Source: Candidatus Omnitrophota bacterium (GTDB lineage Bacteria > Omnitrophota > Omnitrophia > Omnitrophales > Aquincolibacteriaceae). From it: a stretch of 64,000 nucleotides of DNA. Position 1 is the first letter of the stretch; each line of letters starts with the position of its first letter. Made by a program: the position numbers and the translations under genes. The DNA is taken from contig JBDRCT010000003.1 of assembly GCA_043821445.1 (NCBI GenBank), forward strand, positions 5,440-69,439, given 5' to 3'. The notes beneath the pieces are model-generated. The model had not been told where the DNA came from. It saw only the letters and a list, made by a program, of their open reading frames with translations, and made no database searches. This document shows, piece after piece, positions 10,032-64,000 of the stretch.

Positions 10032-11957
10032 TCAAAACTTCAGCTTAGGGCCGAAAAGGACCGCCGGTTCTTCTTTTTCTTCATCCTCGGTCTCACCCAC
10101 ACCGGCCCCGGAATTTGACCCCTCAGAACGGGCCTCCAGCACCGAGAGCTCTCCCCAATCACCAATCTTTGAACGGTTCAATTCCAGAGTACGGTCTTTT
10201 TTATGGAGGACCGCCTCGATGCCCTTCCAGATGACCAGATTGTCCGGCGTCTGTATTTTTACCCCCGCGAATATATTGTCAAGCTTCAAATCCAGGGCCC
10301 CGTTCAGAAAGAAAACGGTCCGGCCTTTCCAGATCTTAGAATCCCTCAACGGCAAGTAAGGAAGAAACCCACGAAGCTGAATGATACCACGGTCATAATC
10401 AAGTTGCCCCCATTTTCCGTTGTGAATGTTGAAAATGCCCGAAACCTCGGGCTTTGCGAGATCCCCCTCCACGGAAAGCGTCCCCTCCAGAAGCCCCCCG
10501 AGCGCCTTTGGTAAAGGTTTCGCCGCGAACTGGTGCACAGTTCCAAGGTCAAAATCCGCCACGCGCAACAGGAGTTTTAGGTCCGAATTTTTCCAGAACT
10601 TGGTCACTCGTCCCGTGATTTGGAATTTTTTCCCCCATGTGCTCCGAATACCTGTGATCCCGGCAGGGCTTAATTCAAAAAAACCCTTTAAGTCCTCGAA
10701 TGGCTGACGGTCCAAAATAAAATAATCAGTTTCGTACTCCCCTTTAAAAAAAAGATCGCGGCCGTTCCAATGCGGCGATACGGAATGAAGAAAAAGTTTC
10801 CCTTGTGTGACAAGATCCATGCCAAAAATCTTGATATGATCTAAATGAAAGTTGAACACAAAATCTAGCCCGCGAAGATTGGAGTGGATCGCCATCCGCT
10901 TTGCGCCTTTTTCAAAACTCAGTTCATAGTTTCCGCTGGCAAAGTCAAGTTCCCCCTGACCCTGGTACCCCGAGTCCAAAACGATCGAATCTATTACAAA
11001 ACGTTTCCGATCCTGGTGGACTTTCCCGCGGAAATCAAAAACCTGCCCCTCCATGGGTTGAAAAGCTCCCTTGAGTGTCTGATGCGGCAGACTCAACGCA
11101 AAATCCAGTTTCATCCACGGGGTACCTTTCCCGATCCGGACATGCGCATTCACTTCGGGCTGCCCCTCATGATTCAAAAAAGCTCCGGAAAGCTCCGCAT
11201 ACCATCCGTATAATGTCCCCTGCAAATCATTAAAAAAAAGATCGCTTCCCACCCAACGGACTTTTCCCTTGAGCGCTTTAAACGGGAGCGGAATATCCTG
11301 CGCGAGATCCATGGCATCCAGTTCCAGCCAAAGATCATGTGTACTCTTGGAAGGATCCACCACGCCATAAATGTGGACACGCCCGCTCACCATGCCGGTC
11401 ATGCGGGCGTGAACGTCTATCTGGACTTTTTTATCAAGAGACGGCAGGATCTTGCCTTCTACTTCTTTGAGCAGAATCTCCTTGCCAAGCGACGAAAGCA
11501 AATAACGGATCTCTCCCCCTTTAAAATCCAAAGATGGCATCGAAAGTCCGGAAACTCCACTAGCGGCATTCTCAAAATAGCGGTAAGGAAATTGATCCTG
11601 TTCGATTAGAACCGCGGGATTCTTCAACACTACACCCACAGGGGCATCGAACTTCCGGCTCCAGAGCTGTTTCAGATCATAGCGAAAAAGAAGGTGGTCG
11701 GCACGGATCAGCTGGGAACCGCCTCGCGCAGAAGGGGTTTCGATGAGGATCTTTTCAAGCGCCAGCTGGTTCAGATGGTAGGGCTTGATCTCGCCAATGT
11801 GGACCGTAGCCTTAAGATACTCCCCGACCCTTTGCTCAGCAAAACGCTTGAAATCCGGCGAATGCGCGATACGCCCCAGAAGAAAATTGAAAAGAAGCAC
11901 GCCGGTCACGAAGAAAAGCGTAAAGAAGAAAAGAACGGCCTTTAGGAAAGAACGCAT
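10032..11957 (-). CDS. AsmA-family / YhdP-like large membrane-anchored protein (outer-membrane lipid homeostasis)
   Basis: 641 aa. Single N-terminal TM helix, long beta-rich periplasmic region, acidic C-terminus. Lies next to the mla operon. Family assignment rests on architecture only. Confidence 0.45.
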   Translation of the reverse strand: MRSFLKAVLFFFTLFFVTGVLLFNFLLGRIAHSPDFKRFAEQRVGEYLKATVHIGEIKPYHLNQLALEKILIETPSARGGSQLIRADHLLFRYDLKQLWSRKFDAPVGVVLKNPAVLIEQDQFPYRYFENAASGVSGLSMPSLDFKGGEIRYLLSSLGKEILLKEVEGKILPSLDKKVQIDVHARMTGMVSGRVHIYGVVDPSKSTHDLWLELDAMDLAQDIPLPFKALKGKVRWVGSDLFFNDLQGTLYGWYAELSGAFLNHEGQPEVNAHVRIGKGTPWMKLDFALSLPHQTLKGAFQPMEGQVFDFRGKVHQDRKRFVIDSIVLDSGYQGQGELDFASGNYELSFEKGAKRMAIHSNLRGLDFVFNFHLDHIKIFGMDLVTQGKLFLHSVSPHWNGRDLFFKGEYETDYFILDRQPFEDLKGFFELSPAGITGIRSTWGKKFQITGRVTKFWKNSDLKLLLRVADFDLGTVHQFAAKPLPKALGGLLEGTLSVEGDLAKPEVSGIFNIHNGKWGQLDYDRGIIQLRGFLPYLPLRDSKIWKGRTVFFLNGALDLKLDNIFAGVKIQTPDNLVIWKGIEAVLHKKDRTLELNRSKIGDWGELSVLEARSEGSNSGAGVGETEDEEKEEPAVLFGPKLKF

Positions 11958-49353: not shown

Positions 49354-50555
49354 AGGTATTCAAGCGCTTTCGTCGCGGCCTTCTCCTGGATCTGATGACG
49401 CTCCCCCCAGAAAACATGCTTCCAGGTCCGGACCGTTCCGTCAGGTGACGCAAGACCGATATAAACAAGGCCAACCGGTTTCCGGGAACTTCCACCGCCG
49501 GGCCCGGCAATCCCTGTAATGCCGACGCCGAAATTGGATCCCATGCGGATACGGACCGATTTTGCGAGCAGCGAAGCGACCTCTGCTGAAACCTCCCCGC
49601 GCTCCCGGATGAGTGTTTTCGGAACGCCAAGATCCGTTTTCACGTCCGCATGGTACGTAATCACTCCCCCGCGAAAATAAGCGCTGGCTCCGGAATACGC
49701 CGTAATGCGCGAGGCCAAAAGCCCGCCTGTGCAGCTTTCCGCGACGGCCAGTGTTTGCTTTTTTCTTGTCAGGATCTTTCCGATCACGATGGAAAGAGGC
49801 GTTTCATCCCAGCCGTAAATCCAGTTCTTGAGCCGGGTCGCGATCTTTCTTTTGAGCCGCCCGAGAACAGTGGTTTTCTCCGAAAGAATGCAGATCGCGA
49901 TCTCACCGGCCGAGGGATAGATCCCGAAATCGAACGGATCGTCAAAAAAATCTTTTCCGAGCCTTTTCATCACATCGGGTTCCGAAATACCGACTATTCT
50001 TACGATCAATTTCCGGCTTTTAAAAAGGTTCCCGTACTTCTTTTTCAGGAATGGCAGGACCACGTCAAAATACATGTTTTGAAGCTCCGAAGGAACGCCG
50101 GGAAGCGCGATCACGATCTTGGATCCGGTCTCGACCAAAAATCCGAGCGCGATCCCAAAACGATTAACGAGGGGTTTCGCGTTCTCGGGATAAAAGGCTT
50201 CGCGTTTGACAAGAGGAGGAATGCGTTTACCGTAACGTTTATAGACTTTTTGCAAATGGCTGTACTGCCGGGCTGAAAAAACAAGGGGGACCTTGAAATG
50301 CGCGGCGATACCTTCACGGGTCACATCATCGGGCGTCGGCCCGAGCCCCCCCATCATGATGACCAGATCCACGCGACGGAGCACCTCGCCCAGCCGGAAA
50401 CGGATTGCCTCCATCGAATCCGGGCAGACGCCGTGGGAGATGACCTCGAACCCGAGGCCGGAGAGCTCACGGCCGAGGAATGCGGCATTTGTGTTGACCA
50501 CGCTCCCGCGCAAAACTTCATTGCCGACAGAGAGGATAGCGGCCGTGGGCTTCAT
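49335..50555 (-). CDS. cinA: CinA (competence/damage-inducible; MoCF-like + CinA C-terminal domain)
   Basis: 406 aa. N-terminal MoaB/MogA-like domain ILSVGNEVLRGSVVNTNAAFL. C-terminal CinA domain. Confidence 0.9.
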   Translation of the reverse strand: MKPTAAILSVGNEVLRGSVVNTNAAFLGRELSGLGFEVISHGVCPDSMEAIRFRLGEVLRRVDLVIMMGGLGPTPDDVTREGIAAHFKVPLVFSARQYSHLQKVYKRYGKRIPPLVKREAFYPENAKPLVNRFGIALGFLVETGSKIVIALPGVPSELQNMYFDVVLPFLKKKYGNLFKSRKLIVRIVGISEPDVMKRLGKDFFDDPFDFGIYPSAGEIAICILSEKTTVLGRLKRKIATRLKNWIYGWDETPLSIVIGKILTRKKQTLAVAESCTGGLLASRITAYSGASAYFRGGVITYHADVKTDLGVPKTLIRERGEVSAEVASLLAKSVRIRMGSNFGVGITGIAGPGGGSSRKPVGLVYIGLASPDGTVRTWKHVFWGERHQIQEKAATKALEYLWRKIC

Positions 50556-51565
50556 TTGAAGATCACGAACAGGATAATCCAGGCATAGAGCCCGGCACCG
50601 AGATCATCGGCCATGATACCCCAGTAACGCGGAATACGCTCAAGCGACCGCACGGGGAAAGGTTTAAATACGTCAAAAACGCGAAACAAAACGAACCCCA
50701 AGATCGCAGAAGACCAGGTGATCGGGATCAGCATGAACGTTACGAAAATACCGCAGACTTCGTCGATCACAATGTATTGTGGGTCCGGGTCCGGATCCGT
50801 GATCCGTTCATAAGCCAAAGCGCCCCACACGACAAAAAACACAAAAACCGCCCCGTAAAGCCCGCTACTCCACCGGGTCAGAAAAACTAGAAGAACACCG
50901 AGCAAACTTCCCCACGTCCCGGGAGCCCTCGGAAAGAGCCCCACCCCAGCCGCAAGAACGAACCTGTTGAATGCTTCGGATTCGAAATGAGCCCGTTGGT
51001 TCCAGAGGAACATGCCGCCTGAGATGATCGTCAATGCGACCGTCGTGATCAACAGGACCGGAAGAAGATAATAAAGCATACCCGTCACTACATCGAGCGC
51101 GGGATAAGGGTTCAGAAGTAAATAGGCAAAAGCGATCCACACCGTGACCGTCTGAAAACCGAATTTCAATTTGCCCATCATTTCGGCACCCAAGGACTTC
51201 CCTTCGAGAAGCCACCCGGTCCGGCAGAATGTCACCAGGATCTCACGGATAAAGATCGGAACCACCCACCAGATCGAATAAAAATGGAGGGCCGCAAAAG
51301 CAGCCATCGGCGCTAAGATCAGGATCTTGTCATTAAAAGGATCGATCCACTTGCCAAAGTCGGATTCAAGTTTGTACTGACGGGCGATCCAACCATCGAA
51401 ATAATCGGTGATCGCACCTACGATGAACAAAATAAAAGCCCAAAGATGTCCCGACGGGCTCGGCCGCAGGATCAAGAACGGTAGAGAAAGCCCGATCAGT
51501 CCCCGCGCGATGCTCAGCACGTTCGGGATCAGGAGAGAGTATTTATATTTCGCCCACGAGGTCAT
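50552..51565 (-). CDS. pgsA: PgsA-PgpA fusion: CDP-diacylglycerol--glycerol-3-phosphate 3-phosphatidyltransferase fused to phosphatidylglycerophosphatase A
   Basis: 337 aa. N-terminal CDP-alcohol phosphatidyltransferase motif DYFDGWIARQYKLESDFGKWIDPFNDK. C-terminal PgpA-like motif LFRVFDVFKPFP...YWGIMADDLGAGLYA. Lies upstream of cinA, as pgsA-cinA in Bacillus. Confidence 0.75.
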   Translation of the reverse strand: MTSWAKYKYSLLIPNVLSIARGLIGLSLPFLILRPSPSGHLWAFILFIVGAITDYFDGWIARQYKLESDFGKWIDPFNDKILILAPMAAFAALHFYSIWWVVPIFIREILVTFCRTGWLLEGKSLGAEMMGKLKFGFQTVTVWIAFAYLLLNPYPALDVVTGMLYYLLPVLLITTVALTIISGGMFLWNQRAHFESEAFNRFVLAAGVGLFPRAPGTWGSLLGVLLVFLTRWSSGLYGAVFVFFVVWGALAYERITDPDPDPQYIVIDEVCGIFVTFMLIPITWSSAILGFVLFRVFDVFKPFPVRSLERIPRYWGIMADDLGAGLYAWIILFVIFK

Positions 51566-52986: not shown

Positions 52987-55900
52987 TTACGCGGCAGACT
53001 GGATCGCCTGCAACGCCTGCATTGCGATTACCAGCATCTTGCTCAAAGCATCCTGGCTGAACGAACGGAAACCATTTTCATCTTTCTCTCCGTTGAGTAC
53101 TTCCTTGATCGCATCGACCTCGCTCGCGCTCAGGATTCGCTGGGACACGATGGACGCAAGGGTCGAAGTCGCGACCCGGCGGCTCACATCCGTACTATAA
53201 GGCTCCTTGATCATGAGCCCCCTGCCTGTATCCGTCTTGAACACTTTCAAAAATTGATCGGAACCCATAAAGACATAACCCAGTGGCCCTCTGGAAATCG
53301 CCGGCATTGTTTTCATTTTCGAGGTGATAAAATTATTCAGAGCAGTTTCCGGATTATTCTTATCGACCACGATGATATCAAAACGTTTTTCGGCGTTTAA
53401 TTCCTTAAGAGTTTTTGCTAATCGCTGCTCCATTCCCCTCTTTCGTTGCTCTGCTGCCGCAACTTCAGCCGCACCGTCCGCCATCAACACCATAACCTTC
53501 CCTTGCATTTTATTAACCAATGTCCCGAGATCTGCGGGCTCAATGATCGCATCCGCAGGCACGAGCTCAATCTCAAGCCCCTGCTTGTCCATGATTTCAA
53601 TTTGGGTCGTTTTCCCAAATAATGCTCCTGCCAACCCAGTAAAGACATCCCGAATAGCGGTGACCCAACCCGCGGTTTTCGCAGCGCTCGCGTTCGCAAG
53701 TTGCACAATAACATCAGCCATTTGCTCCGCCTTCAACCCGTCATCGAACACCATCCCCGCCACCGCCGCTACAATGACCGGCCCTTTCGCTCCCTGAACC
53801 TCCAGATTATTCACTGCCTCGACATTTGGCCCAATTTTAGCCTGCTCGACAACCAACATATCAGCAGGTGAGATTGCTTCACGAACGACCCTCATCTCGG
53901 AGCGTTGAGTTCCCGGCTCAGCTCCCGGAGATTCGGTTTCAAGGCGCTTTCCAACGGCCTTGAGTTCAGCCGCAACACGAGTTTTTTCGATTTTTGCTGC
54001 TTCAGCTTCGCGCACCTCAGAACGTTTCTCCGTCCCAGGCGCTCCACCCGGCATCTGATCGGTAAATTCCCTTTCAACAAAATCGTTCAACTTATCGATG
54101 CTGACTTCCTCCAGATCCCTGAAGGTCGCGAACATCTTCCTGGCCCCTTCCGCCCAGGATTCCTTTACTTTGGGCGGCTCACTCTCCCAAATAGCCAACA
54201 AGTCACTCACCGTCCTCCAGCGGGCATACTCATTTTCTCCCCTCCCGCCGTTCATCTTGAACCGGTCATAAATGGCGCCGGGATTGGCTTCCAAAACATA
54301 TTTTTGTATCGGGATGTACTTACCCTTAATTCCTGACAAGACCGCGAACCCTTTTTGCTGCGCCAGCCCCAACGCAACACAGAGAAGTGCTAATCCCGGA
54401 TGGAGCCCAATGCGCTGCGGAAAGGTCTCCCGAATCTGTTCCTTTTGATTAAGCCCGCCCGTGATCACAGCCACTCTCAATGCTTCACCGTTCTCTGCCT
54501 GCTGAGTATCAACGCCGATGCGATAGATCCATTGGGTCCTCTCACCTATCGCCTCCCCGATGGCTATGAGAACCCCGGAGGAGCCTTTCCCGAAGCCATA
54601 GCGCATTTCGATCAAGTAGGGTGTGCCACTGATACGCGCGATCTGTACGGATTGACGTCTCCGGAACTCCGGAGCGAACATCTGTTCCATTTTTTTCATA
54701 TTCTGTGTCGCCAAAACTAATTTTGTTTTGCTATCAAGTCCCGGCGGCAGATTGTAAAAAAACCGCCCTTGAGGATTCTGATCGATACGATATTGGCTCA
54801 AATAGGTCCTGAAAAAATCCTCGAAAACTTCGGCGGGAACGTTCCGCGGCACGACCTGGTTCTCCATCATCCACTCGAACAAGCTCCCGGTCTGCTTCTC
54901 TTCGATCTCCATGCTTTCCCGGAGCTTTTGGGACAAAAGCTTTAGCAGCTCATCGCAGGGTTTTTTTGTGAATGCCCGGATCCTGAAAATATAGTCCAGG
55001 GTTTGTTGGACCAGATCGAGCCTAAGCGGCTCACCCGCCGAAGGACTCAAAAGCCATGAAGCAATCTCATTCGCCTTCTCGTTCGAAAGGATCTGCCGTT
55101 TCTTGACGGAAACCGTCAGATACCCCAAAATATCCTCCCGCGTCTCGGAGCGAGCTGAAGGTATGGCCTCTTTAAGATGACCTGCGAGAGACTCCAAATA
55201 GGCTTCATCCACTTGCGGACCGACCCAATCGGGAGACTTTGTGAGATAGACTTTAGGATCGGGCTGGAGACCGTAGCGGTTCAGGAAATCCAAAAGCGGT
55301 GTGCTTTGTTTCCCGAAGTTATTTGGGTCGGTGTGATACCCTGCAGTTCCTAGTTCCTTTCTCATGTTCACCGTAATCCACTCCGGCGGCGACTCTTGGA
55401 GCGAATAAGCGTCAGCACAAACGGTCACGAATGTTTCGGTTCCAAAGATCTTCCCGGCCAGTTGATCCAGCTCCTTACCCTTCAGTTCAACGATCACAGG
55501 CCTGAACCACCATCCTATCTTTTGCATCGTCCAAATACGAATCGCCACAGGGCCCAGGATCTTTTCTGATGGCGGAACATGGACAAAATAAGTGATAAGT
55601 CCTTCGCGTAAAGCACGCGACCCCCAGTTCCCTTCGTTAATGGGTACTAAATATTGCTGCGTCCACGTTCCAACATCCGGATGGGCGTCAAAATTCACCA
55701 GGATCGGCAAAGCGGGGTTGGCCTCCCCCCGTTGTTTTCTCTCGCGGAACCGCTCCCGGAGATAATCTAAGACCCCGTCATGGGTCTCGATCGTGACCAC
55801 TTCTGTCCCAACTTTCGTCAGGACTCCTTTTCGCATTTCGGAGCGGGAAACGGGCTTTTCAGCAATGAGTTCGGAATAAGGCACGCGACGGCCGCCGAGT

Positions 55901-58900
55901 TCGTCTAGGGATTGTCTGGCTTTTTCGCGCTGAGCCTTGTAGAAAAGAAAAAGAAGCGCGGGAGCTTTGGCGGGGTTGAATCTGGCAATCTTACCGTATT
56001 TCCCTTCGTCCACGTCCATGGCCTTTTCGAGATCTTCCGGGGAAACCGCCTTTACCACATCCGAAAGCCACGCCGCCATCTTCATAACATTATCGATCTT
56101 TTGAAGAGGAGTGAGTTGAGAAGCGAGTCCGTTGAGACGCTCCAGGTCTGCTTGCTGGGCAATGATCAACAGAAGTATGGGAGATGTCGTTTCCGGAGTA
56201 CCCGGGATTTTTTTAAGTTCCTCTTCTAACTTCAACCCCGCCTTGTCAAATGTTTCGATGGTGGTGGGCGGACCACGATTCCTTTGGACATCCCCATGAA
56301 AAACTTCCACTATTTCGTCCGGGGCCACCCGGAAGATGATCTCTCCCCTTTCAAGCATCTCTGGGACCGTCTCTTCATCTTTGACCCCAAAAAGTTCGCG
56401 GGCGCTCCCGGAAACGGCTGTAATGGCCTGATCTCCGCCTTTATAGCCAACCCCGTCCATGTTTTGATATTCATGGAAGGCTCTCGGGATCGCCTGTCCC
56501 TTGTAACCCAGAACAATGAGGTGTCTCGTTTCCTTAATATCAACTTTCCGCGCTGCCTCCTGTCCCGCTCCTTCGGTTAAGAGACCTGTAAGGGTGTCGA
56601 TGATCTTCGGGTCCCTTTTTTCAGAGCTCGATGCCCGTTCTGCGAGCTTTTTCGACACCTCTTCGATCTTGTCCCGAGTCACTTCCTTTTTAACAAAAAT
56701 CCCGACTTTCACCTGATTCCTTTTCTTTTTAGCTTCCGAAAGTGCGTCATTGGCCAGCCACATCGCGCACTCATCAAAAAGTTCTATGCGCTCAGGCCTT
56801 AAAGTTTCTACGTCATCCTTTATATAAGTCCAATAATTGCCGCCGTCCTCGTGCTTAACGTCTTTCATCACCTCTTTAAAATAGTCCAGCACCCCGGACT
56901 GTTCCGGGAATTCAGGGTTCCCGGCAGCAGGAGCCGCTCCGATAGAAATAGTGAGAAATCCCCATTTTTGGGGAGTTGCGTTTTCAGATTGGATCTTTTC
57001 AAATCGGATCTCGTGAAGCTGATCGCCTTCCAGATTCAGTTTCGTATGAAGATCTCGCAAAAAGTCCTGCCATTTTCCCTCAGCATCTAACTTCCTCCGA
57101 TCGACACGGATGTATGTGCTCCCCGCATAAAGCACTGCGCTAAGTACGGAAGCATATTCTTTTGATTCGAAAATCTTCGCTTCATTTTCAGTAAGCGTTT
57201 TCTCCACTTCTAAAACCGCATAGCGTCCAAAAAATTCTTCATTGAGGTCTCGCAGGAAATTCTCCAGATCTTCTTGGGTAACTTTCCTTGCGGGAACGAA
57301 TATGATTTCATCGCCTCCAACACCCCGGTAAACTTCTAGGCCATATTTTTTGGCGATCACAAGTATCGTTTTCCGGTAATCGAGAACGGGTGAGTCTTTG
57401 GGCGTGATAAGATGCTCACCCGATCTTTCCAGGCTCATGACCCCCACGATGCCTTTCCCGCCGAGTGCGAGATTCTTGGCGCCGATCTTATCGAAATCCG
57501 ACATATAAAAACGGAAATTTTGAAGATCCGTCACACTTGGGTGTGCCCGCAGATATTTCAAACGTTGTTCCTTTCCGTCGTCCTGTGTTCCCCAGCCGTC
57601 CGATGATTTGAAAGCGTCCGGTTCAACACGAATTCCCAATTTTTCAGCTGTCTCAGGCGTCAATCGCGTGCTTGCGGGAATGGTAACCGTTTCAATTTCT
57701 CCGGTTTCCGAATTCCGGTGCGTGATCTTGAGGCCACCCTCTACTGCTACCTGGAGGTTCAGCAAATCTGCTACTGCCGCTTTGTGACTTGTCGGCGGAC
57801 TCGAATAGACATCGACAGCGCCGCCTTCTCTCATGGCCACTTCCAGCCCCCGAAGCTGCTCATTGATCTCGTCGATCTTCTCCTGTGTTATTTTCTCTGT
57901 CCGCATCTCGGAGCGTGGGAAAGCCATCAAAGCCGTTGCCGGTGTTTGCTGGGTGAACCGGTCCCCGGTATCGCCGCCATCAACAAAAAGAGCCTCCTTG
58001 ATGTCATAGGTGGTGTGCCAGTTTTCTAATGCCTCTATAAGCTTAGCCGTGGTCGGTCCCGTCCAACCAAAAATATCCCAGCCAAAAATATCCAGAGTGT
58101 GGACCCTTCCGCTTGGATCTACCCCCACAACGCTTTTCCGGCCTGAGAAAATACTTTTATGCCAATTCTCAATATTAGGATTCAAATTTCCTTCCGTGAT
58201 AGCCATGGGACCGGCCTGAAAACCTTGCGCCCATTGCTCTTTCGGGTAATTCTCCGGACGAAAGCCTTCTGCTGGCCTGATAAGCACGTCTCCGTTCCTG
58301 TTCAGTAGAAAAATTCCTTTCAACATGGCTGATCCGTTTTCTATGAATGCCCTATCCTGAGCATCCTCGCTCAACCGGAACCACCCTATGGCTCTCCTGC
58401 TTATCTCCCTAAAAGGATTGGCGTTCGAGACGTAGGTCCACCCCTCAGCCAGCAGTTGTTTGATATCCTTCCGTTCCACAATGCGGAACTCATATTTTTT
58501 GGGATCGAATTCGCGGGTCCCTTCGCTACTCCAATGATCGACCGTTGCCTTCTGTGCCACCCCAATCCCAAGAGACAAACCAAGAGCCCCCAGCAACAAG
58601 TTCCGCCTTGAGAAGATTTGAACCTCTTCCTGCCGCATCTCGGAACGCCCCTTGCCTTTGGGCGTGGCAGCTTTTCCGGCTTTTGCTTTTTGTGGACTGG
58701 GTTTCACGGTTTTCGGAGGGGTCTTTAAAATAGGATCCAGTTGTCGCGCGTACTGATTGAGCTCTGGGGTCAACCGTTCTACGGTATCTTTCGCATCGCG
58801 AACGGCCTTTGCCGCCTCGTTTTTGATCATTTCCCATTCGGCCGCCGTGTACCCTTTGTTGGAATAACCTTCCAGTTTTTTAAGCATTCGGCCGGCCTCA

Positions 58901-61900
58901 CCGAGATACCCCGTTTCAAGTTTTGCAAGGTTCCTTAGATTAATAGAAATGCGGTTCCTATATTGTTGAAGCTTCTTAAGATTGCGTTCTTTAGCGGGTT
59001 TATCCATTTCTCCCCGAATTGCTTCCGCAAGCGACTCGGCATCCCGGATCCTGCGAAGCGAGTTGGTAAGGGGCACGTTGACATGTTCGACCTGGTAGAG
59101 ATCCACCGTGAGATTCTTGAAAAGTGCGGCCGTTTGCTTCCGGTAACTGTCGCTTAAGGCTTCGCCCATCGTTCGTTCCACCAACTCTGCCGCAAACGCT
59201 TTAACGGCAACCGCTTTTAGGTAGGTCGCAAGCCCGTAATGAAGGTCGGCTTCCTCCCCCTCGTTCCTGGGCTTTGCGGTATCTCCCAGGTAAGGCGTAT
59301 TGTATTTCCTGTGGAACCGCGGCCACCCATCCTTCTCCCCGGGCCGGCCGGCAACATCCTGGGCTGAGGGTTCCATACGAATGAGGATAAACAGCCGCCA
59401 CAGGAGATGCTGCAACGTCGGGTCCGACGCGATACTTTCACGAACCCTGGCCGTTTCCGGTCTCCCCCTCTTTTTCTTTCTTATATTGTCTAAGTCCAGG
59501 GTGTTATATGTTGGGGACTTAAGCGCCTTATAAAAAGCGTCCACGCCGGGCGTCCAATTCTTTTCGATGAGCTGCCTAACAGGACTGCCTTCAGGAGCCA
59601 TCATTGCTTCGCGAAAAACGTCGACCGCCGATTGGGCTTCGATCTGGAAGGGGCCGGCCGCAGGACCTTTTTTCTTTTGATAGGGTTCGAACGTCGGATT
59701 TTCGAGATAGGTCAGATAGATCGCAGCGAACGCCAGATGCTGGATGCGCTCGGCACGTTCTTTTTCAGAAATGCCGGGATAAAGTGTCCTCTCGGAATCC
59801 CTTAAGAAAACCATGGTGTCCAGGTAGTGACGGACAATACGCTGCATCCGTTCGTCCTGTATATTCTCCGTATCGATCGCCGTCAAATCGCCTTGCAGCG
59901 CTTCAAGATCAAATGGGGTAAGTGCCCTCACCGGCGCGACGAGGGCCGTACTGACCGTCGAAGGTTTGCCTGGCAGCAATGCATTGTGAAACACGTAATA
60001 GACCGCCCCCCCAATCAGCAACACCAATGACAGTGTACCGATCACAAGCGTTCGTTTGATACGGGCAAGTTCGGACTTGGGAATTATGATCCTTAGCCGT
60101 ACTTTATCCTCATCCCGAATTTCGGAGCGGGAATTCTGAACGGCCCAATTGATGACTGCCTGGGACAGTTGACCGGGATAGGCGTTGATCAGGCCGGAGC
60201 TCGATATGCTGAAGACAACAACACTGTCTGGAACGGGCGGCGTTTTGTAACCGTCCGAATTGGGGTCGTATCGTGTTACCGCCAGCGGCACAGAGGCTGC
60301 CTTCGCGGGATCATATTTTGGGGGGTCGAAAACATAATATCGGGTTTTGAAAAATTCGGCGGTTTCAACGCGGGTAACGTTCTCCTCCGCCAAAAAGCTC
60401 CTGCTTCCAGCCAAACCCTGCTGGTAATGCGCCATATGGATCAATTCGTGGAGAAGGGTCCCTGTAAATATCTCCCATGCCGCGTTCCGGTCTTTTAGCA
60501 CCCAATCCAGAGCGCCCTGATCGACCGCGATAAGCTGCGAGTACGCCCGCCCACCTGCCCCACCTCCGGGCCTGTCTGTGCTATTGGGACTGACAAAGAC
60601 ATGATTTTGCCAATTGGGATCTGCCAGCAGGTCCCGGACAACGGGATCTCTGCTATTGGGCGCCATCGCCGCGATCTCTGCCCACGCTTCTTCCAGGACC
60701 TTTTTCGCTTCAGCCGGGAGATCACGGAATGCGGTATATCCAACCGGTATATCGCTCGGTGCAACTACCGAGAGGCCCCGCGCCCCCTGGCTGCAGGCCG
60801 TTCCCGCGGTCATCACAAACGCTGCAACAGGCGCGGTCCTCGCCCAAAACACCGGATTCGAAAAGTTTAGCGATGCCGCGAGAAGTACTAATGAGGCGTT
60901 CCGTTTTAATTTTGCGGAAACTCCCCGCACCCTAGGGGCAGAAGTCTCTACCTTGGCCTGCCGGCCCGCAGCGATCCATGCTTCATCCCAAACCCGGCGA
61001 ATCTCCTCTTCACGTTTTTCCAGGCCTGGAATTACATCATAAATGAACACGGCCTTTTCATCCCGCATCTCGGAGCGGCCACTAAACAACTCCGGATGTT
61101 TTCGGAGTATCCTATCGATCATCGGGCGGGCTGCTTGTTCCGCAAGCAGGGATCTTCTTATCCTTTTGTATCTTTCGATAAGCTTCGCACGAACTTCCAG
61201 TGAAACCCGCTGATCGCCCACTAGTTGGAGAAACTTCATGTTCTCTCTTGAAGCGCTAAAAAGGTCGTCCACGGACCCGTCCTCATTGAACCTGTCCCAA
61301 TGGTCATTCTTTTTGTTTTCTTCGCCGGCCAAACCCGCTAAAACGTTAATCGTTGTTTCTTTCCCGGCAGATCGCAACATCGCGGCTAATGTGGCCTTAA
61401 AATCTTCCTTATGCGCTCCCCGGTCGTCGAGGAGGGCCGCGTCCAACGCACTAAAGGCAGCAATGGGATCAGGGTCTTCCCCAAGCATCCGGATCGCCTG
61501 CCCTAAAGCCTTCCCATAAGTCAATTCCCGACGCTTGACCTTCTCCTCGAGCCAGAAAAAAAAGTCTTTTCGAAATTGTTCCCCACGTCCCGGCTCCCGA
61601 CTTAGTTGATCCATTTCGGTCAAGGCTTGGATATAAACCTCATCCATCGTTTCGGGCGTGGAACCACGGATCAGCTCCTTCCAGTGCGCCTCCATCTCCC
61701 GAAAAGCTTCGGAGTCCAAAGGACTGGCAGGTGACGACCTTGGACCTTCCGTTCGAGGGATCGCTGGGGAGACTTGACCTGCGTCGGGAGCTTTTTCGAG
61801 GAGTTCCTCCAGCCGCGCGATCTCGGCATCCATGCCGGCAAGAACTTCTTCTTTTGTAGCGATCGGGTCGATCCGACCGCTTGCGCCATTGAACTGGATC

Positions 61901-63990
61901 CCGCCCTTGTTAAACGCCAGATGACCGGGATCGCCCTCGTCCACATCAATGATAAAAACCCGGTTGTTTGCGCGAAATAATTTCTTCAAGTGGATATGTG
62001 CACCAACAATTCCGGCACAGCCAAGTCTCGTCAAGTAATTATCAAGAACAGCTTCATTGACCCGGGGCTCGGCACCGTCAACGGAGGAGCCGAAGAATTG
62101 ATCAATCCAGTCTTTTTTCTTGGCCCAAAATATATCTTTTGCGCTCAAAAAATACCCTGTCAGATGATCCTGATTGGCTTTTATTTCCAACCTCGGATCG
62201 TTCTCTAACCCCTTTTGAATGGCCGACCATTCTTCCCCAAGCCTCTCCAATGCTTCCCGGTCGATCGTGGGATTTCCGTCCTTGTTCATGGGAATACCGG
62301 CATGGACATGAAGGAACCCGCGCTCGTCCTCGGCAAAAAGTTTGAAATTCCGAACCATCCAGAGAGCCAGCTCTTGAACAGAGGAAAGATCCCGGACCAG
62401 CCAATCCGCTGCATAACCGCCAACCTTCTGTTCTGCTTCATTCATTTCCTTTAATGACTCTAAGAGCATTCTTTCGTCACCTGTCTTGCGTGCCTGGCTA
62501 TATTTTTGGATTGCCCGTCGATATTTAATTGCTGCTTGATTTGCCGCCTCGACTTCTCCCGGCCGGAATGGAAATCCAAACTCCTTGAGCGTTGCACAGG
62601 CGCCATTGATAATCCAATCCGTAAACGTACTCGGATCCTTTAATAGAACGGATTCGATCATAAAAACATCGTGGTTCCCGAGGAATAGGTCAACCTTGAT
62701 ATTGGGATGATCTTGGGTAAGTTGGACCAGTTCCTGAAAGATCTCCCAGACCCTTTTGTTTTGGCCTCCGCGGTCAAATCCGTCTCCGTGACCCATGATG
62801 TGAAGGGGCTTCCCGGTCCTGGCAGCTTCCTTTGCCTCCGACAGGATCGCTTCCAGATCCCCCACTTTCCCGTGCTTATCCCCGAATGTTAATATCTCGG
62901 GAATTTCACGGCCCTCCGCATCACGACCTGTTGCAATACGCTCCTGGGAACCTTTCAGGTAGTCGATCCTTTTTCTGTAATACTCTTTCGTTCCTGGCAC
63001 CTCCCGCATTTCGGAACGGGTAACGGGAGGCTGTTGTTCTTCGGCTTTTGGCGCCACCGTTGATCCGGCATTTATGTTAAGTTCTGCTAGAGCATTAATT
63101 AATGCATTGATCCGCGCGGATCTTTCCGCGTCTAGGCGATCTACATTTTGTTCTTTGACTACTTTTAAAGCCTGCAGGACCGTCGCTCCTAGAGCCTGTT
63201 GCCGTGTCCGTATCAAGCTCAAAACATCTTCCGGTTTTCCCCCAAGGACGCGCTGAAGATCCTGGGGATCGATCGAAGCCACATCGCGTACGGCTTGAAC
63301 CAGGAACTCAGGACCCGCTTCACTCAACGCTTTCAACACCAAGGGACCATCGAATGAGAACGGCGTACCGATCGGCTGGATTCCGGCAGCATTGGTCAGG
63401 TCATAGAGGACATAGTAGCGGCGTCCGTCGATCGTGGAAATACCGACATTATGGTCCAGTTTAAAATCGGTGGCCCCGGTAAGCGCCAAAAACGCCAGGA
63501 TCTTCTCGATCCCCGAAGTACGCGGGTCAGCCAACTCCGGCAAAGTCAGATCGTTTGCATCACGGGACAAAATGGCGGTCACAGAATTCAGAGAATTGAT
63601 GTCGTAGCGCAAACCCATAATCTGCGCGTTCCAATATCTGGAAAATTTTTCGGGCATTGATAAATCTTCCACAGAGATCTCGGTCCAGCGCGGTATGTTT
63701 ACACCCGCAAGCGCTGCTAACTGATACCCTCTCTTTTCTTTCTGCATTTCTGAAGGTGTGTCCAGTTTTAGGTACCATTTTTCATTCGTGGTCCTGTCGT
63801 TGACGTACCAGGCGTATTCCGGAGCTCTTTTCAAAACCTCTAAATCGACCGCTTTGGGAAACACCGCCGCGGCTCCCCCTTGATCCCGCACTTCGGACCG
63901 GGAAAGAACTTTCTTCAAACCCAAGTTGAGTTTGTGTTTTAACTCCTCCGTGAATTCCTCCGGGATGATCTTTCCCGTAGGCAACTTCAC
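52987..63990 (-). CDS. giant 3,667-aa multi-enzyme polyprotein; modules separated by conserved R-S-E-[MVIT]-R junctions
   Basis: Uninterrupted 11,004-nt ORF. Junction copies at aa 32, 326, 973, 1289, 1783, 2027, 2717, 2948, 3324 and 3364.
Modules:
- aa 36-325: kinase-like (TDFKLDHNVGIS...YVLYDL).
- aa 330-972: PPP metallophosphatase (GDxHG-like HIMGHGDGFDRGG; GNHD; VHAGIP; GAHIH).
- aa 977-1288: HExxH metallopeptidase (TLLHELIHMAHY).
- aa 1293-1782: TM signal-anchor plus possible lysozyme-like region.
- aa 1787-2026: Tat-like signal (SRRNLLLGALGLSLGIGVAQKA) plus phosphodiester-glycosidase-like (ALFVDGGDTG).
- aa 2031-2716: GGDEF-like palm (SDFDKIGAKN...RGVGGDEIIF).
- aa 2721-2947: DAHxD motif (LVNFDAHPDVG).
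- aa 2952-3323 and aa 3368-3667: unknown. Confidence 0.8.
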   Translation of the reverse strand: MKLPTGKIIPEEFTEELKHKLNLGLKKVLSRSEVRDQGGAAAVFPKAVDLEVLKRAPEYAWYVNDRTTNEKWYLKLDTPSEMQKEKRGYQLAALAGVNIPRWTEISVEDLSMPEKFSRYWNAQIMGLRYDINSLNSVTAILSRDANDLTLPELADPRTSGIEKILAFLALTGATDFKLDHNVGISTIDGRRYYVLYDLTNAAGIQPIGTPFSFDGPLVLKALSEAGPEFLVQAVRDVASIDPQDLQRVLGGKPEDVLSLIRTRQQALGATVLQALKVVKEQNVDRLDAERSARINALINALAELNINAGSTVAPKAEEQQPPVTRSEMREVPGTKEYYRKRIDYLKGSQERIATGRDAEGREIPEILTFGDKHGKVGDLEAILSEAKEAARTGKPLHIMGHGDGFDRGGQNKRVWEIFQELVQLTQDHPNIKVDLFLGNHDVFMIESVLLKDPSTFTDWIINGACATLKEFGFPFRPGEVEAANQAAIKYRRAIQKYSQARKTGDERMLLESLKEMNEAEQKVGGYAADWLVRDLSSVQELALWMVRNFKLFAEDERGFLHVHAGIPMNKDGNPTIDREALERLGEEWSAIQKGLENDPRLEIKANQDHLTGYFLSAKDIFWAKKKDWIDQFFGSSVDGAEPRVNEAVLDNYLTRLGCAGIVGAHIHLKKLFRANNRVFIIDVDEGDPGHLAFNKGGIQFNGASGRIDPIATKEEVLAGMDAEIARLEELLEKAPDAGQVSPAIPRTEGPRSSPASPLDSEAFREMEAHWKELIRGSTPETMDEVYIQALTEMDQLSREPGRGEQFRKDFFFWLEEKVKRRELTYGKALGQAIRMLGEDPDPIAAFSALDAALLDDRGAHKEDFKATLAAMLRSAGKETTINVLAGLAGEENKKNDHWDRFNEDGSVDDLFSASRENMKFLQLVGDQRVSLEVRAKLIERYKRIRRSLLAEQAARPMIDRILRKHPELFSGRSEMRDEKAVFIYDVIPGLEKREEEIRRVWDEAWIAAGRQAKVETSAPRVRGVSAKLKRNASLVLLAASLNFSNPVFWARTAPVAAFVMTAGTACSQGARGLSVVAPSDIPVGYTAFRDLPAEAKKVLEEAWAEIAAMAPNSRDPVVRDLLADPNWQNHVFVSPNSTDRPGGGAGGRAYSQLIAVDQGALDWVLKDRNAAWEIFTGTLLHELIHMAHYQQGLAGSRSFLAEENVTRVETAEFFKTRYYVFDPPKYDPAKAASVPLAVTRYDPNSDGYKTPPVPDSVVVFSISSSGLINAYPGQLSQAVINWAVQNSRSEIRDEDKVRLRIIIPKSELARIKRTLVIGTLSLVLLIGGAVYYVFHNALLPGKPSTVSTALVAPVRALTPFDLEALQGDLTAIDTENIQDERMQRIVRHYLDTMVFLRDSERTLYPGISEKERAERIQHLAFAAIYLTYLENPTFEPYQKKKGPAAGPFQIEAQSAVDVFREAMMAPEGSPVRQLIEKNWTPGVDAFYKALKSPTYNTLDLDNIRKKKRGRPETARVRESIASDPTLQHLLWRLFILIRMEPSAQDVAGRPGEKDGWPRFHRKYNTPYLGDTAKPRNEGEEADLHYGLATYLKAVAVKAFAAELVERTMGEALSDSYRKQTAALFKNLTVDLYQVEHVNVPLTNSLRRIRDAESLAEAIRGEMDKPAKERNLKKLQQYRNRISINLRNLAKLETGYLGEAGRMLKKLEGYSNKGYTAAEWEMIKNEAAKAVRDAKDTVERLTPELNQYARQLDPILKTPPKTVKPSPQKAKAGKAATPKGKGRSEMRQEEVQIFSRRNLLLGALGLSLGIGVAQKATVDHWSSEGTREFDPKKYEFRIVERKDIKQLLAEGWTYVSNANPFREISRRAIGWFRLSEDAQDRAFIENGSAMLKGIFLLNRNGDVLIRPAEGFRPENYPKEQWAQGFQAGPMAITEGNLNPNIENWHKSIFSGRKSVVGVDPSGRVHTLDIFGWDIFGWTGPTTAKLIEALENWHTTYDIKEALFVDGGDTGDRFTQQTPATALMAFPRSEMRTEKITQEKIDEINEQLRGLEVAMREGGAVDVYSSPPTSHKAAVADLLNLQVAVEGGLKITHRNSETGEIETVTIPASTRLTPETAEKLGIRVEPDAFKSSDGWGTQDDGKEQRLKYLRAHPSVTDLQNFRFYMSDFDKIGAKNLALGGKGIVGVMSLERSGEHLITPKDSPVLDYRKTILVIAKKYGLEVYRGVGGDEIIFVPARKVTQEDLENFLRDLNEEFFGRYAVLEVEKTLTENEAKIFESKEYASVLSAVLYAGSTYIRVDRRKLDAEGKWQDFLRDLHTKLNLEGDQLHEIRFEKIQSENATPQKWGFLTISIGAAPAAGNPEFPEQSGVLDYFKEVMKDVKHEDGGNYWTYIKDDVETLRPERIELFDECAMWLANDALSEAKKKRNQVKVGIFVKKEVTRDKIEEVSKKLAERASSSEKRDPKIIDTLTGLLTEGAGQEAARKVDIKETRHLIVLGYKGQAIPRAFHEYQNMDGVGYKGGDQAITAVSGSARELFGVKDEETVPEMLERGEIIFRVAPDEIVEVFHGDVQRNRGPPTTIETFDKAGLKLEEELKKIPGTPETTSPILLLIIAQQADLERLNGLASQLTPLQKIDNVMKMAAWLSDVVKAVSPEDLEKAMDVDEGKYGKIARFNPAKAPALLFLFYKAQREKARQSLDELGGRRVPYSELIAEKPVSRSEMRKGVLTKVGTEVVTIETHDGVLDYLRERFRERKQRGEANPALPILVNFDAHPDVGTWTQQYLVPINEGNWGSRALREGLITYFVHVPPSEKILGPVAIRIWTMQKIGWWFRPVIVELKGKELDQLAGKIFGTETFVTVCADAYSLQESPPEWITVNMRKELGTAGYHTDPNNFGKQSTPLLDFLNRYGLQPDPKVYLTKSPDWVGPQVDEAYLESLAGHLKEAIPSARSETREDILGYLTVSVKKRQILSNEKANEIASWLLSPSAGEPLRLDLVQQTLDYIFRIRAFTKKPCDELLKLLSQKLRESMEIEEKQTGSLFEWMMENQVVPRNVPAEVFEDFFRTYLSQYRIDQNPQGRFFYNLPPGLDSKTKLVLATQNMKKMEQMFAPEFRRRQSVQIARISGTPYLIEMRYGFGKGSSGVLIAIGEAIGERTQWIYRIGVDTQQAENGEALRVAVITGGLNQKEQIRETFPQRIGLHPGLALLCVALGLAQQKGFAVLSGIKGKYIPIQKYVLEANPGAIYDRFKMNGGRGENEYARWRTVSDLLAIWESEPPKVKESWAEGARKMFATFRDLEEVSIDKLNDFVEREFTDQMPGGAPGTEKRSEVREAEAAKIEKTRVAAELKAVGKRLETESPGAEPGTQRSEMRVVREAISPADMLVVEQAKIGPNVEAVNNLEVQGAKGPVIVAAVAGMVFDDGLKAEQMADVIVQLANASAAKTAGWVTAIRDVFTGLAGALFGKTTQIEIMDKQGLEIELVPADAIIEPADLGTLVNKMQGKVMVLMADGAAEVAAAEQRKRGMEQRLAKTLKELNAEKRFDIIVVDKNNPETALNNFITSKMKTMPAISRGPLGYVFMGSDQFLKVFKTDTGRGLMIKEPYSTDVSRRVATSTLASIVSQRILSASEVDAIKEVLNGEKDENGFRSFSQDALSKMLVIAMQALQAIQSAA

Positions 63991-64000
63991 GGCACTATTC

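Follow-up and report, generated by a model that had tools for sequence, protein, structure and literature searches.

Giant open reading frame and its recurrent pentapeptide

The 64,000 nt stretch of contig JBDRCT010000003.1 from a Candidatus Omnitrophota bacterium (GenBank assembly GCA_043821445.1; hereafter the window, to which all nucleotide positions refer) carries a single giant open reading frame (ORF) on its minus strand. Omnitrophota are widespread, mostly uncultured nanobacteria which are host-dependent or predatory, and they encode the longest predicted proteins. From a nominal GTG start at position 63990, the ORF extends over 3,667 aa (52987..63990). No in-frame stop codon is found upstream of this GTG up to the window edge, so that the ORF fills 52987..64000 and continues beyond the window edge at its 5' end. 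The GTG "start" (63990-64000, minus strand) is an artefact of the window. With 100% identity, the window ORF matches the C-terminal part of a protein of 6,270 aa (P0001, [quoted passage not shown]), which has 2,603 more residues upstream and is encoded by an 18.8 kb gene. Unless indicated otherwise, residues are numbered from the GTG at 63990 (minus strand).

P0001 starts with a signal-peptide-like N-terminus and a head domain of ~600 aa. These are followed by at least 16 cassettes, each of which is preceded by a delimiter, the pentapeptide R-S-E-x-R. Enzyme-like cassettes include kinase-like, PPP phosphatase, zincin-like, and NAGPA-like ones, and at least 10 other cassettes are present. An earlier note on this DNA had described a kinase-like and a metallophosphatase module in one chain, joined at an RSEMR junction. 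All sequence strings quoted there are indeed encoded on the minus strand at the places given: TDFKLDHNVGIS (aa 174-185), YVLYDLT (aa 193-199), HIMGHGDGFDRGG (aa 397-409), FLGNHDVFM (aa 436-444), VHAGIP (aa 562-567), GAHIH (aa 663-667), and RSEMR (aa 325-329 and 972-976). The region is a 2.8 kb slice of the P0001 gene which covers two neighbouring cassettes (here M1 and M2), and the supposed two-module chain thus corresponds to two of at least 16 cassettes in one continuous ORF. Its first module was taken to begin at aa 36, which is the residue following another copy of the delimiter (RSEVR, aa 31-35). Nor is RSEMR specific for the junction between these two modules. It is a generic delimiter which occurs 10 times in the window ORF (as RSE[MVIT]R) and is absent from all other real genes of the window.

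The 16 copies of R-S-E-x-R in P0001 compare to 0.14 expected from amino acid composition (Poisson P 1e-27). Five further giant proteins (P0002, P0003, P0004, P0006, and P0014) have 8-17 copies each, and P0005 mostly carries the variant R-A-E-x-R (9 copies). In 65 instances of the motif, R, S, E, and R are the only fixed residues, while M, V, A, and I are the most common residues at x. The six preceding residues are small or flexible and the following ones tend to be acidic; otherwise, the surroundings are unconserved. In an AlphaFold2 model of cassette M1, the delimiter region (residues 1-10) has a predicted local distance difference test score (pLDDT) of ~41 and part of the C-terminal linker (residues 282-284) is below 50, while the domain between them is above 90. 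Spacers bounded by delimiters can be as short as 35 aa, and closely spaced duplicates of the motif, 9-20 aa apart, occur in P0003 and P0064. Transmembrane segments are not clearly enriched just past the delimiters among 8 proteins, which have 11 such segments, few for testing. Synonymous codons vary inside the motif (AGC for Ser, AGG or AGA for Arg) and constraint must therefore act on the peptide.

Delimiters coincide with cassette boundaries

P0001 was cut in silico at each motif and the resulting pieces were compared by BLASTP with P0002-P0007. Of 11 matching blocks, 9 start exactly at a delimiter in each of the two proteins compared. In the tenth case (P0004), an RAEMR is found ~26 aa upstream of the block start; in the remaining case (P0005), there is no motif at this place.

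Cassette order varies between the proteins. The homologue of cassette M8 comes first in P0002, ahead of a cassette that resembles m06 of P0001, and in P0003 the phosphatase cassette is preceded by another neighbour than in P0001. P0003 is the positional ortholog of P0001. The two loci (the syntenic one being L001) have common downstream genes (MiaB-like radical SAM protein, PgsA-PgpA, CinA, LigT, and two PilB-like ATPases). Despite this synteny, nothing but the head and four cassettes is common to P0003 and P0001. Judged by these alignments, the delimiters mark cassette boundaries and the cassettes are shuffled as units.

The helical extension at the C-terminus of cassette M2 recurs in P0003 (aa 1351-1505 of that protein), apart from the P0003 phosphatase cassette. 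Since no delimiter separates extension and phosphatase in M2, not every domain boundary carries one.

A conserved head domain accompanies the motif

Together with an N-terminal signal peptide, the same head of ~600 aa opens P0001 and 15 other giants among the carriers of M1-like cassettes. It also opens 56 further proteins (~500-1,200 aa), most of them from Omnitrophota. Many of these consist of the head and one or two cassettes (~1,000 aa), and some of the head only (~500 aa). In 40 of the shorter head proteins, the tails contain 24 copies of R-[SA]-E-x-R, with 0.98 expected (P 4e-25), and the heads contain none. Broad head alignments proved too divergent for locus scans. A metagenome scan with the N-terminal part of the head returned 41 loci. 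Their tails hold 109 motifs in 34,113 residues (3.2 per 1,000 aa), all heads together hold 3, and 2-14 copies are present in each tail of 800 aa or longer. Which residues occupy the variable positions depends on the lineage, examples being RAEKR (~7 copies in L033) and R[SA]EAR.

More distant giants with this head use other recurrent motifs: GARLA in P0020 (10 copies) and DxAM[LM] in P0016 (9 copies). The M1-like cassette of P0020 begins at GARLA and that of P0016 at DxAM[LM]. In P0021, the string SRG[IV]SGLPNEVYS recurs 4-5 times.

The invariant residues of the head include H51, E79, R472, and H500, located in IQ[ND]AH, EG, RD, and GGFH motifs, respectively. The structural model (pLDDT 79) combines a small alpha/beta core and a large helical insertion. 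An erythromycin-esterase-like structure is found at rank 22 of the Foldseek matches (E 1.2), and 3 of 61 head members show a weak Pfam match to PF04187 (ChaN/Tiki superfamily; E ~1e-3). This points weakly to a distant hydrolase of the Tiki/ChaN/erythromycin-esterase type and is to be taken as a lead rather than as a result.

Cassette M1 resembles CtkA and HipA kinases

Neither Pfam nor NCBIfam assigns a family to M1, with Pkinase, HipA_C, and PI3_PI4_kinase among the families covered, and M1 alone found no match in a word-indexed homology search. When 1.84 billion representative proteins were searched exhaustively, 24 relatives were obtained. Most of these are embedded in proteins of 1,200-7,165 aa. 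The few stand-alone relatives start with signal peptides or lipoboxes. In an alignment of 22 sequences, K45 and N151 (module numbering) are invariant, and E55, D145, and D167 show a conservation of at least 90%. The corresponding putative catalytic residues of the ORF are K75, E85, D175, N181, and D197. The pattern Lys / Glu / Asp..Asn / Asp is that of protein kinases, but the catalytic loop has the spacing D-x5-N instead of the usual D-x4-N.

The AlphaFold2 model of M1 (aa 36-324) has a pLDDT of 90.9 and a predicted template modelling score of 0.87. The fold is bilobal and all 50 best Foldseek matches in the PDB are protein kinases. The top match is CtkA from Helicobacter pylori (E 3e-4, probability 1.0) with a template modelling (TM) score of ~0.37, the highest TM score among the top matches being 0.39. 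HipA ranks 8th (E 1.9e-3). At the profile level, the match to HipA in the PDB is weak (E ~0.15) and covers the region of the Lys and helix C; a PDB search with the single sequence returned only noise. A similarity of the C-terminal helices of M1 to a designed homeodomain (E 4e-5) was taken as helical-bundle similarity and not as homology.

The earlier note had likened the first module to HipA/PI3-4K-like kinases and had named a fold other than that of kinases as the outcome that would speak against it. The modelled fold proved to be kinase-like, with CtkA and HipA among the matches, and the catalytic residues agree, while a curated kinase family could not be assigned. By predicted fold and catalytic residues, though not by curated family, M1 is thus a CtkA/HipA-like protein kinase with predicted activity. 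It differs from HipA as it lacks the HipA N-terminal domain, the HipB partner, and the operon, and is one cassette of a giant protein. CtkA (JHP940 of H. pylori) is a secreted kinase, which is paralleled by the signal peptides of the stand-alone M1 relatives.

Cassette M2 is a PPP-family metallophosphatase

M2 carries the motifs GDKHG (aa 370-374), GDGFDRG (aa 402-408), GNHD (aa 438-441), HVHAG (aa 561-565), and GAHIH (aa 663-667). The first of these (FGDKHG, aa 369-374) had been missing from the list in the earlier note. Pfam family PF00149 (Metallophos) matches with 31.5 bits (cut-off 21.5), the match covering the first three motifs only. While a PDB search with the single sequence returned only noise, a profile built from four M2 sequences matches a cold-active phosphatase from Shewanella (2zbm/1v73, E 9e-5), BSU1, and Rhizobiales-like phosphatase 2. 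The first three motifs align with those of 2zbm, and the residues of the GDxHG/GDxxDRG/GNHD set are invariant in the four homologues except for an R to W replacement in P0003. HVHAG and GAHIH are also invariant among the homologues, but this half shows no significant alignment with solved structures. We conclude from these similarities that M2 is a PPP-family metallophosphatase, as the earlier note had proposed in assigning it to the calcineurin-like phosphoesterases, with a full set of metal-binding motifs in which the C-terminal His ligands are predicted from the motifs.

M2 shares GDxHG, GDxxDRG, GNH[ED], and the downstream His motifs with the bacterial-like PPP phosphatases (Shewanella-like and Rhizobiales-like enzymes; ApaH/PrpA/lambda-phosphatase group). 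In contrast to these, it has an insertion of ~110 aa between motif III and HVHAG and a helical C-terminal extension of 230 aa, only its N-terminal motifs align significantly to solved structures, and it resides within a giant protein. When 185,579 species genomes were scanned with the M2 profile, only 4 loci were obtained, none of which has the delimiter motif.

Kinase and phosphatase as a pair

The earlier note had suggested that the two modules might form a toxin-antitoxin-like or a switch pair. For co-occurrence, all fetched proteins and loci were searched with a profile of each cassette (~30 carriers). M1-like cassettes are present in 24 proteins, and M2-like cassettes in P0001, P0002, P0003/L001, L006, P0005, L002, L003, and L004. 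Both types occur together only in P0001 and P0002 (2 of the ~30 carriers). M1 is found without M2 in 21 other proteins, and P0008 breaks off right after M1. In the syntenic ortholog P0003, the phosphatase cassette is present without the kinase cassette, and the other carriers of M2 also lack M1. The layout is not of the HipBA type: M1 is internal to an 18.8-kb ORF and no small HipB-like gene is adjacent. P0001 has a second kinase-like cassette further upstream, outside the window (P0001 aa 1775-2031, with VAIKM, DENPSN, and IID), which shows 53% sequence identity to its counterpart in P0003.

An opposing pair that was selected to act on a common substrate, either as a switch or as a toxin/antidote couple, would be in line with the intact catalytic motifs of both cassettes, with their adjacency in P0001 and P0002 as part of a conserved block (m06-m07-m08), and with the toxin kinase HipA being among the closest structural relatives of M1. 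This reading is weak because co-occurrence is rare and because P0001 contains another kinase-like cassette, in addition to many unrelated enzymes; the junction motif is generic and there is neither a HipB-like partner nor a separate small gene. We thus consider a selected pair improbable. Kinase and phosphatase are probably independent payloads and not a coupled switch, although they may cooperate locally in this lineage.

Other cassettes and neighbouring genes

The delimiters and cassettes of the window ORF are listed in Table 1, together with some other genes of the window. Cassette M3 was not found in the related giant proteins that were compared; with its HELIH motif, a role as effector or as processing protease is conceivable. 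PDB searches with the single sequences of M4, M6, and M7 returned only noise (such as troponin C, UvrB, and TrpRS). M5 contains a signal-peptide-like or Tat-like segment 12 residues past an internal RSEMR, and its NAGPA-like match is just under the Pfam threshold.

The remainder of the window codes for housekeeping functions (tRNA synthetases, IspDF, Mla, ClpC/McsB, fatty-acid synthases, and a type IV pilus / type II secretion cluster). PgsA-like proteins and PgpA, which are fused in one gene, catalyse consecutive steps of phosphatidylglycerol synthesis. No link was found between the McsB-like protein arginine kinase and the Arg-rich delimiter.

Table 1. Delimiters, cassettes, and selected further genes in the window
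Positions	Strand	Feature	Remark
52987..64000	-	Continuous ORF: C-terminal 3,667 aa of P0001 plus 3 codons to the window edge	100% identity to P0001
63901..64000	-	C-terminal part of the cassette before M1 (m06 of P0001)	Truncated at the window edge
63886..63900	-	Delimiter RSEVR, aa 31-35	Disordered in the model (pLDDT ~41, residues 1-10)
63019..63885	-	Cassette M1: predicted CtkA/HipA-like protein-kinase fold, then C-terminal helical bundle	
63004..63018	-	Delimiter RSEMR, aa 325-329	Junction singled out by the earlier note
61774..63003	-	Cassette M2, catalytic part: PPP-family metallophosphatase	Pfam, motifs, profile
61078..61773	-	Cassette M2, C-terminal helical extension	No delimiter between extension and phosphatase
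61063..61077	-	Delimiter RSEMR, aa 972-976	
60130..61062	-	Cassette M3, zincin-type HELIH motif at 60436-60450	Tox-MPTase3 E 0.043 only
60115..60129	-	Delimiter RSEIR, aa 1288-1292	
58648..60114	-	Cassette M4, transmembrane helix 27 aa past the delimiter	
58633..58647	-	Delimiter RSEMR, aa 1782-1786	
57916..58632	-	Cassette M5: signal-peptide-like SRRNLLLGALGLSLGIGVAQ (58552-58611), then NAGPA/phosphodiester-glycosidase-like domain	Pfam 24.7 bits, cut-off 25
57901..57915	-	Delimiter RSEMR, aa 2026-2030	
55846..57900	-	Cassette M6, 690 aa, GGDEF-like VGGDEIIFV string	
55831..55845	-	Delimiter RSEMR, aa 2716-2720	
55153..55830	-	Cassette M7, 231 aa	Homologous cassette in P0007 (4,733 aa, SecA domains)
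55138..55152	-	Delimiter RSETR, aa 2947-2951	
54025..55137	-	Cassette M8, 376 aa	Homologues in P0002 and P0004
54010..54024	-	Delimiter RSEVR, aa 3323-3327	A 35-aa spacer follows
53890..53904	-	Delimiter RSEMR, aa 3363-3367	
52990..53889	-	Last cassette M10, 305 aa including delimiter	ORF stop 52987-52989
50555-51565	-	One gene fusing CDP-alcohol phosphatidyltransferase (PgsA-like) and PgpA	Also in L001
37737-47578	-	Gene cluster for type IV pilus / type II secretion, located downstream of the giant gene, with two tandem PilB-like ATPases, PilC, PilM, secretin	Likewise in L001
11978-15853	-	ClpC-like ATPase adjoining ATP:guanido phosphotransferase (McsB-like protein arginine kinase)	
10035-11957	-	641-aa ORF beside Mla genes	No Pfam family at E <= 1e-5

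Possible processing of the giant chain

The delimiter may mark the points at which the giant proteins are cut. P0001 would then be a secreted polyprotein that is cut at R-[S/A]-E-x-R sites and releases separate enzymes, a reading to which we attribute a little less than an even chance. The chain would be exported by means of its N-terminal signal peptide and then be cut at R-[S/A]-E-x-R by a dedicated protease, which is possibly the head domain with its invariant H, E, R, and H residues. Cutting would release the individual enzymes, including a secreted kinase and a phosphatase, whose targets would be the cell envelope or a host or prey cell.

Several observations are consistent with cutting. 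The motif is sharp, its flanks are free, and it is strictly tied to the head; it is a recurrent short site between independently folding units. The motifs GARLA and DxAM[LM], which occur at the equivalent position in other lineages, have the look of lineage-specific protease sites. The signal-peptide-like segment of M5 right after a delimiter makes most sense if a new N-terminus is formed there. Also, the stand-alone homologues of M1 are secreted proteins as judged from their signal peptides or lipoboxes. As a more specific version, the head might be a new autoprocessing hydrolase that cuts its own chain, with GARLA and DxAM[LM] as co-evolved sites in other lineages; we regard this proposal as tentative and rather doubtful.

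A number of results weigh against cutting. Neither in the window nor at the syntenic locus L001 is a protease gene found near the giant gene. Foldseek searches of the PDB with the head model, which is dominated by the large helical insertion, gave no significant match, and the Pfam matches of the head are below every curated threshold. Some related giants lack any recurrent motif. A kinase requires ATP, which is scarce outside cells. L039 (9920-14821) codes for a complete, head-bearing protein of 1,633 aa that ends 5 residues past an RAELR; this terminal motif is a poor fit to a pure release site, or it may be the scar of a cassette loss. Finally, codon usage within the motif is skewed (27 motifs, comprising the window delimiters and those of L001:10001-27526). 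The first Arg is encoded by CGY in 25 of 27 cases, compared to 32% gene-wide (P 7e-11), and Ser by TCC in 20 of 27, compared to 21% gene-wide (P 5e-9). This codon bias exceeds the constraint on the peptide and hints at an additional factor at the nucleotide level.

The main rival to cutting is an uncut, membrane-anchored scaffold of many enzymes, with R-[S/A]-E-x-R as a short linear motif of the linkers that is read by a docking partner. That partner could be a chaperone or export factor or an anchoring protein, or the head itself could be the docking site. The location in disordered linkers with unconserved flanks is typical for short linear motifs, the tight linkage to the head would be expected, and the duplicates in P0003 and P0064 would suit avidity. 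The terminal motif of L039 suits docking better than release, and the literature gives non-cleaved giant proteins equal standing. On the other hand, the M5 internal segment is without an obvious role in an uncut chain. The exchange of the motif in other lineages would require repeated co-evolution of the partner, an objection that hits a protease equally. On balance, we consider the scaffold less likely than cutting.

The skewed codons, the rapid turnover of cassettes in order and content even at the syntenic locus, and x codons that are ATG, GTG, ATA, ATT, or GTA in 19 of 27 motifs would also be compatible with a motif that is mainly a nucleic-acid signal, with the peptide as by-product. Such a signal could be a short homology by which recombination adds, removes, and shuffles cassettes, or it could serve RNA processing or internal initiation. 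Against this, synonymous changes preserve the peptide, the alternation of S and A and the free x fit a peptide motif, and 15 bases are very short for homologous recombination. Internal initiation at the x codon was rejected as a general rule, as 8 of 27 x codons cannot initiate translation and the fixed bases cannot accommodate a Shine-Dalgarno-like sequence. A signal of this kind is therefore very unlikely. We assign an even lower likelihood, close to dismissal, to the motif Ser being a regulatory phosphosite, written by the kinase cassettes and erased by the PPP cassette. P0001 does carry two kinase-like cassettes and a protein phosphatase, and a Ser between Arg and Glu would be a plausible kinase context. 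Yet Ala replaces Ser throughout some lineages (RAExR in P0005, RAEKR in L033, and many shorter proteins), by which a phosphosite as general rule is rejected, and most motif-bearing relatives lack both M1 and M2 cassettes.

Relation to known systems and significance

Cutting at the delimiters, as considered above, would have some resemblance to MARTX toxins and viral polyproteins. In these, as in the P0001 family, variable cassettes follow a conserved N-terminal part, the repertoire differs between close relatives, and short sites are located between modules in linkers. However, Pfam scans of P0001 revealed neither RTX/glycine-rich repeats nor a cysteine protease domain, and the delimiter of P0001 is a sharply defined pentapeptide, at which processing would be presumed rather than observed.

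Whether giant Omnitrophota proteins persist as single chains or are cut is a question raised in the literature. West-Roberts et al. (2023; bioRxiv 10.1101/2023.11.21.568195) described such proteins and stated that the cleavage points are unknown, which blocks their dissection. Nielsen & Lui (2026; bioRxiv 10.64898/2026.06.07.730766) defined a "multi-enzyme" class of long Omnitrophota proteins and do not mention motifs, linkers, processing, or cleavage. P0001 resembles the published giants in being from the same phylum, in having unrelated enzyme domains tiling one chain, and in its N-terminal signal region. Its relative P0007 carries SecA-like domains, and post-translational cleavage has been suspected in the literature. 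In contrast to the published giants, P0001 (6,270 aa) is below the size classes on which these papers focus, and neither paper reports a recurrent delimiter motif or this head domain. Literature searches for RSEMR as a protein motif returned only unrelated acronyms, and nothing was found for Omnitrophota polyproteins. The delimiter and its link to the head thus appear to be undescribed in the searchable literature.

It is this architecture of delimiters and head that we consider of interest, and not the fused pair. The present study adds a family-restricted pentapeptide at cassette boundaries, a head domain that always accompanies it, and evidence for the shuffling of cassettes as units. The M1 group would represent a new clade of secreted CtkA/HipA-like kinases and the M2 group a rare clade of PPP phosphatases, both being candidate effectors. 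The delimiter leads to a testable hypothesis and to a practical rule by which giants can be split for structure prediction and assays. If cutting driven by the head holds true, the delimiters would be the first defined cleavage points for giant proteins of Omnitrophota and would provide a rule for delineating their functional units.

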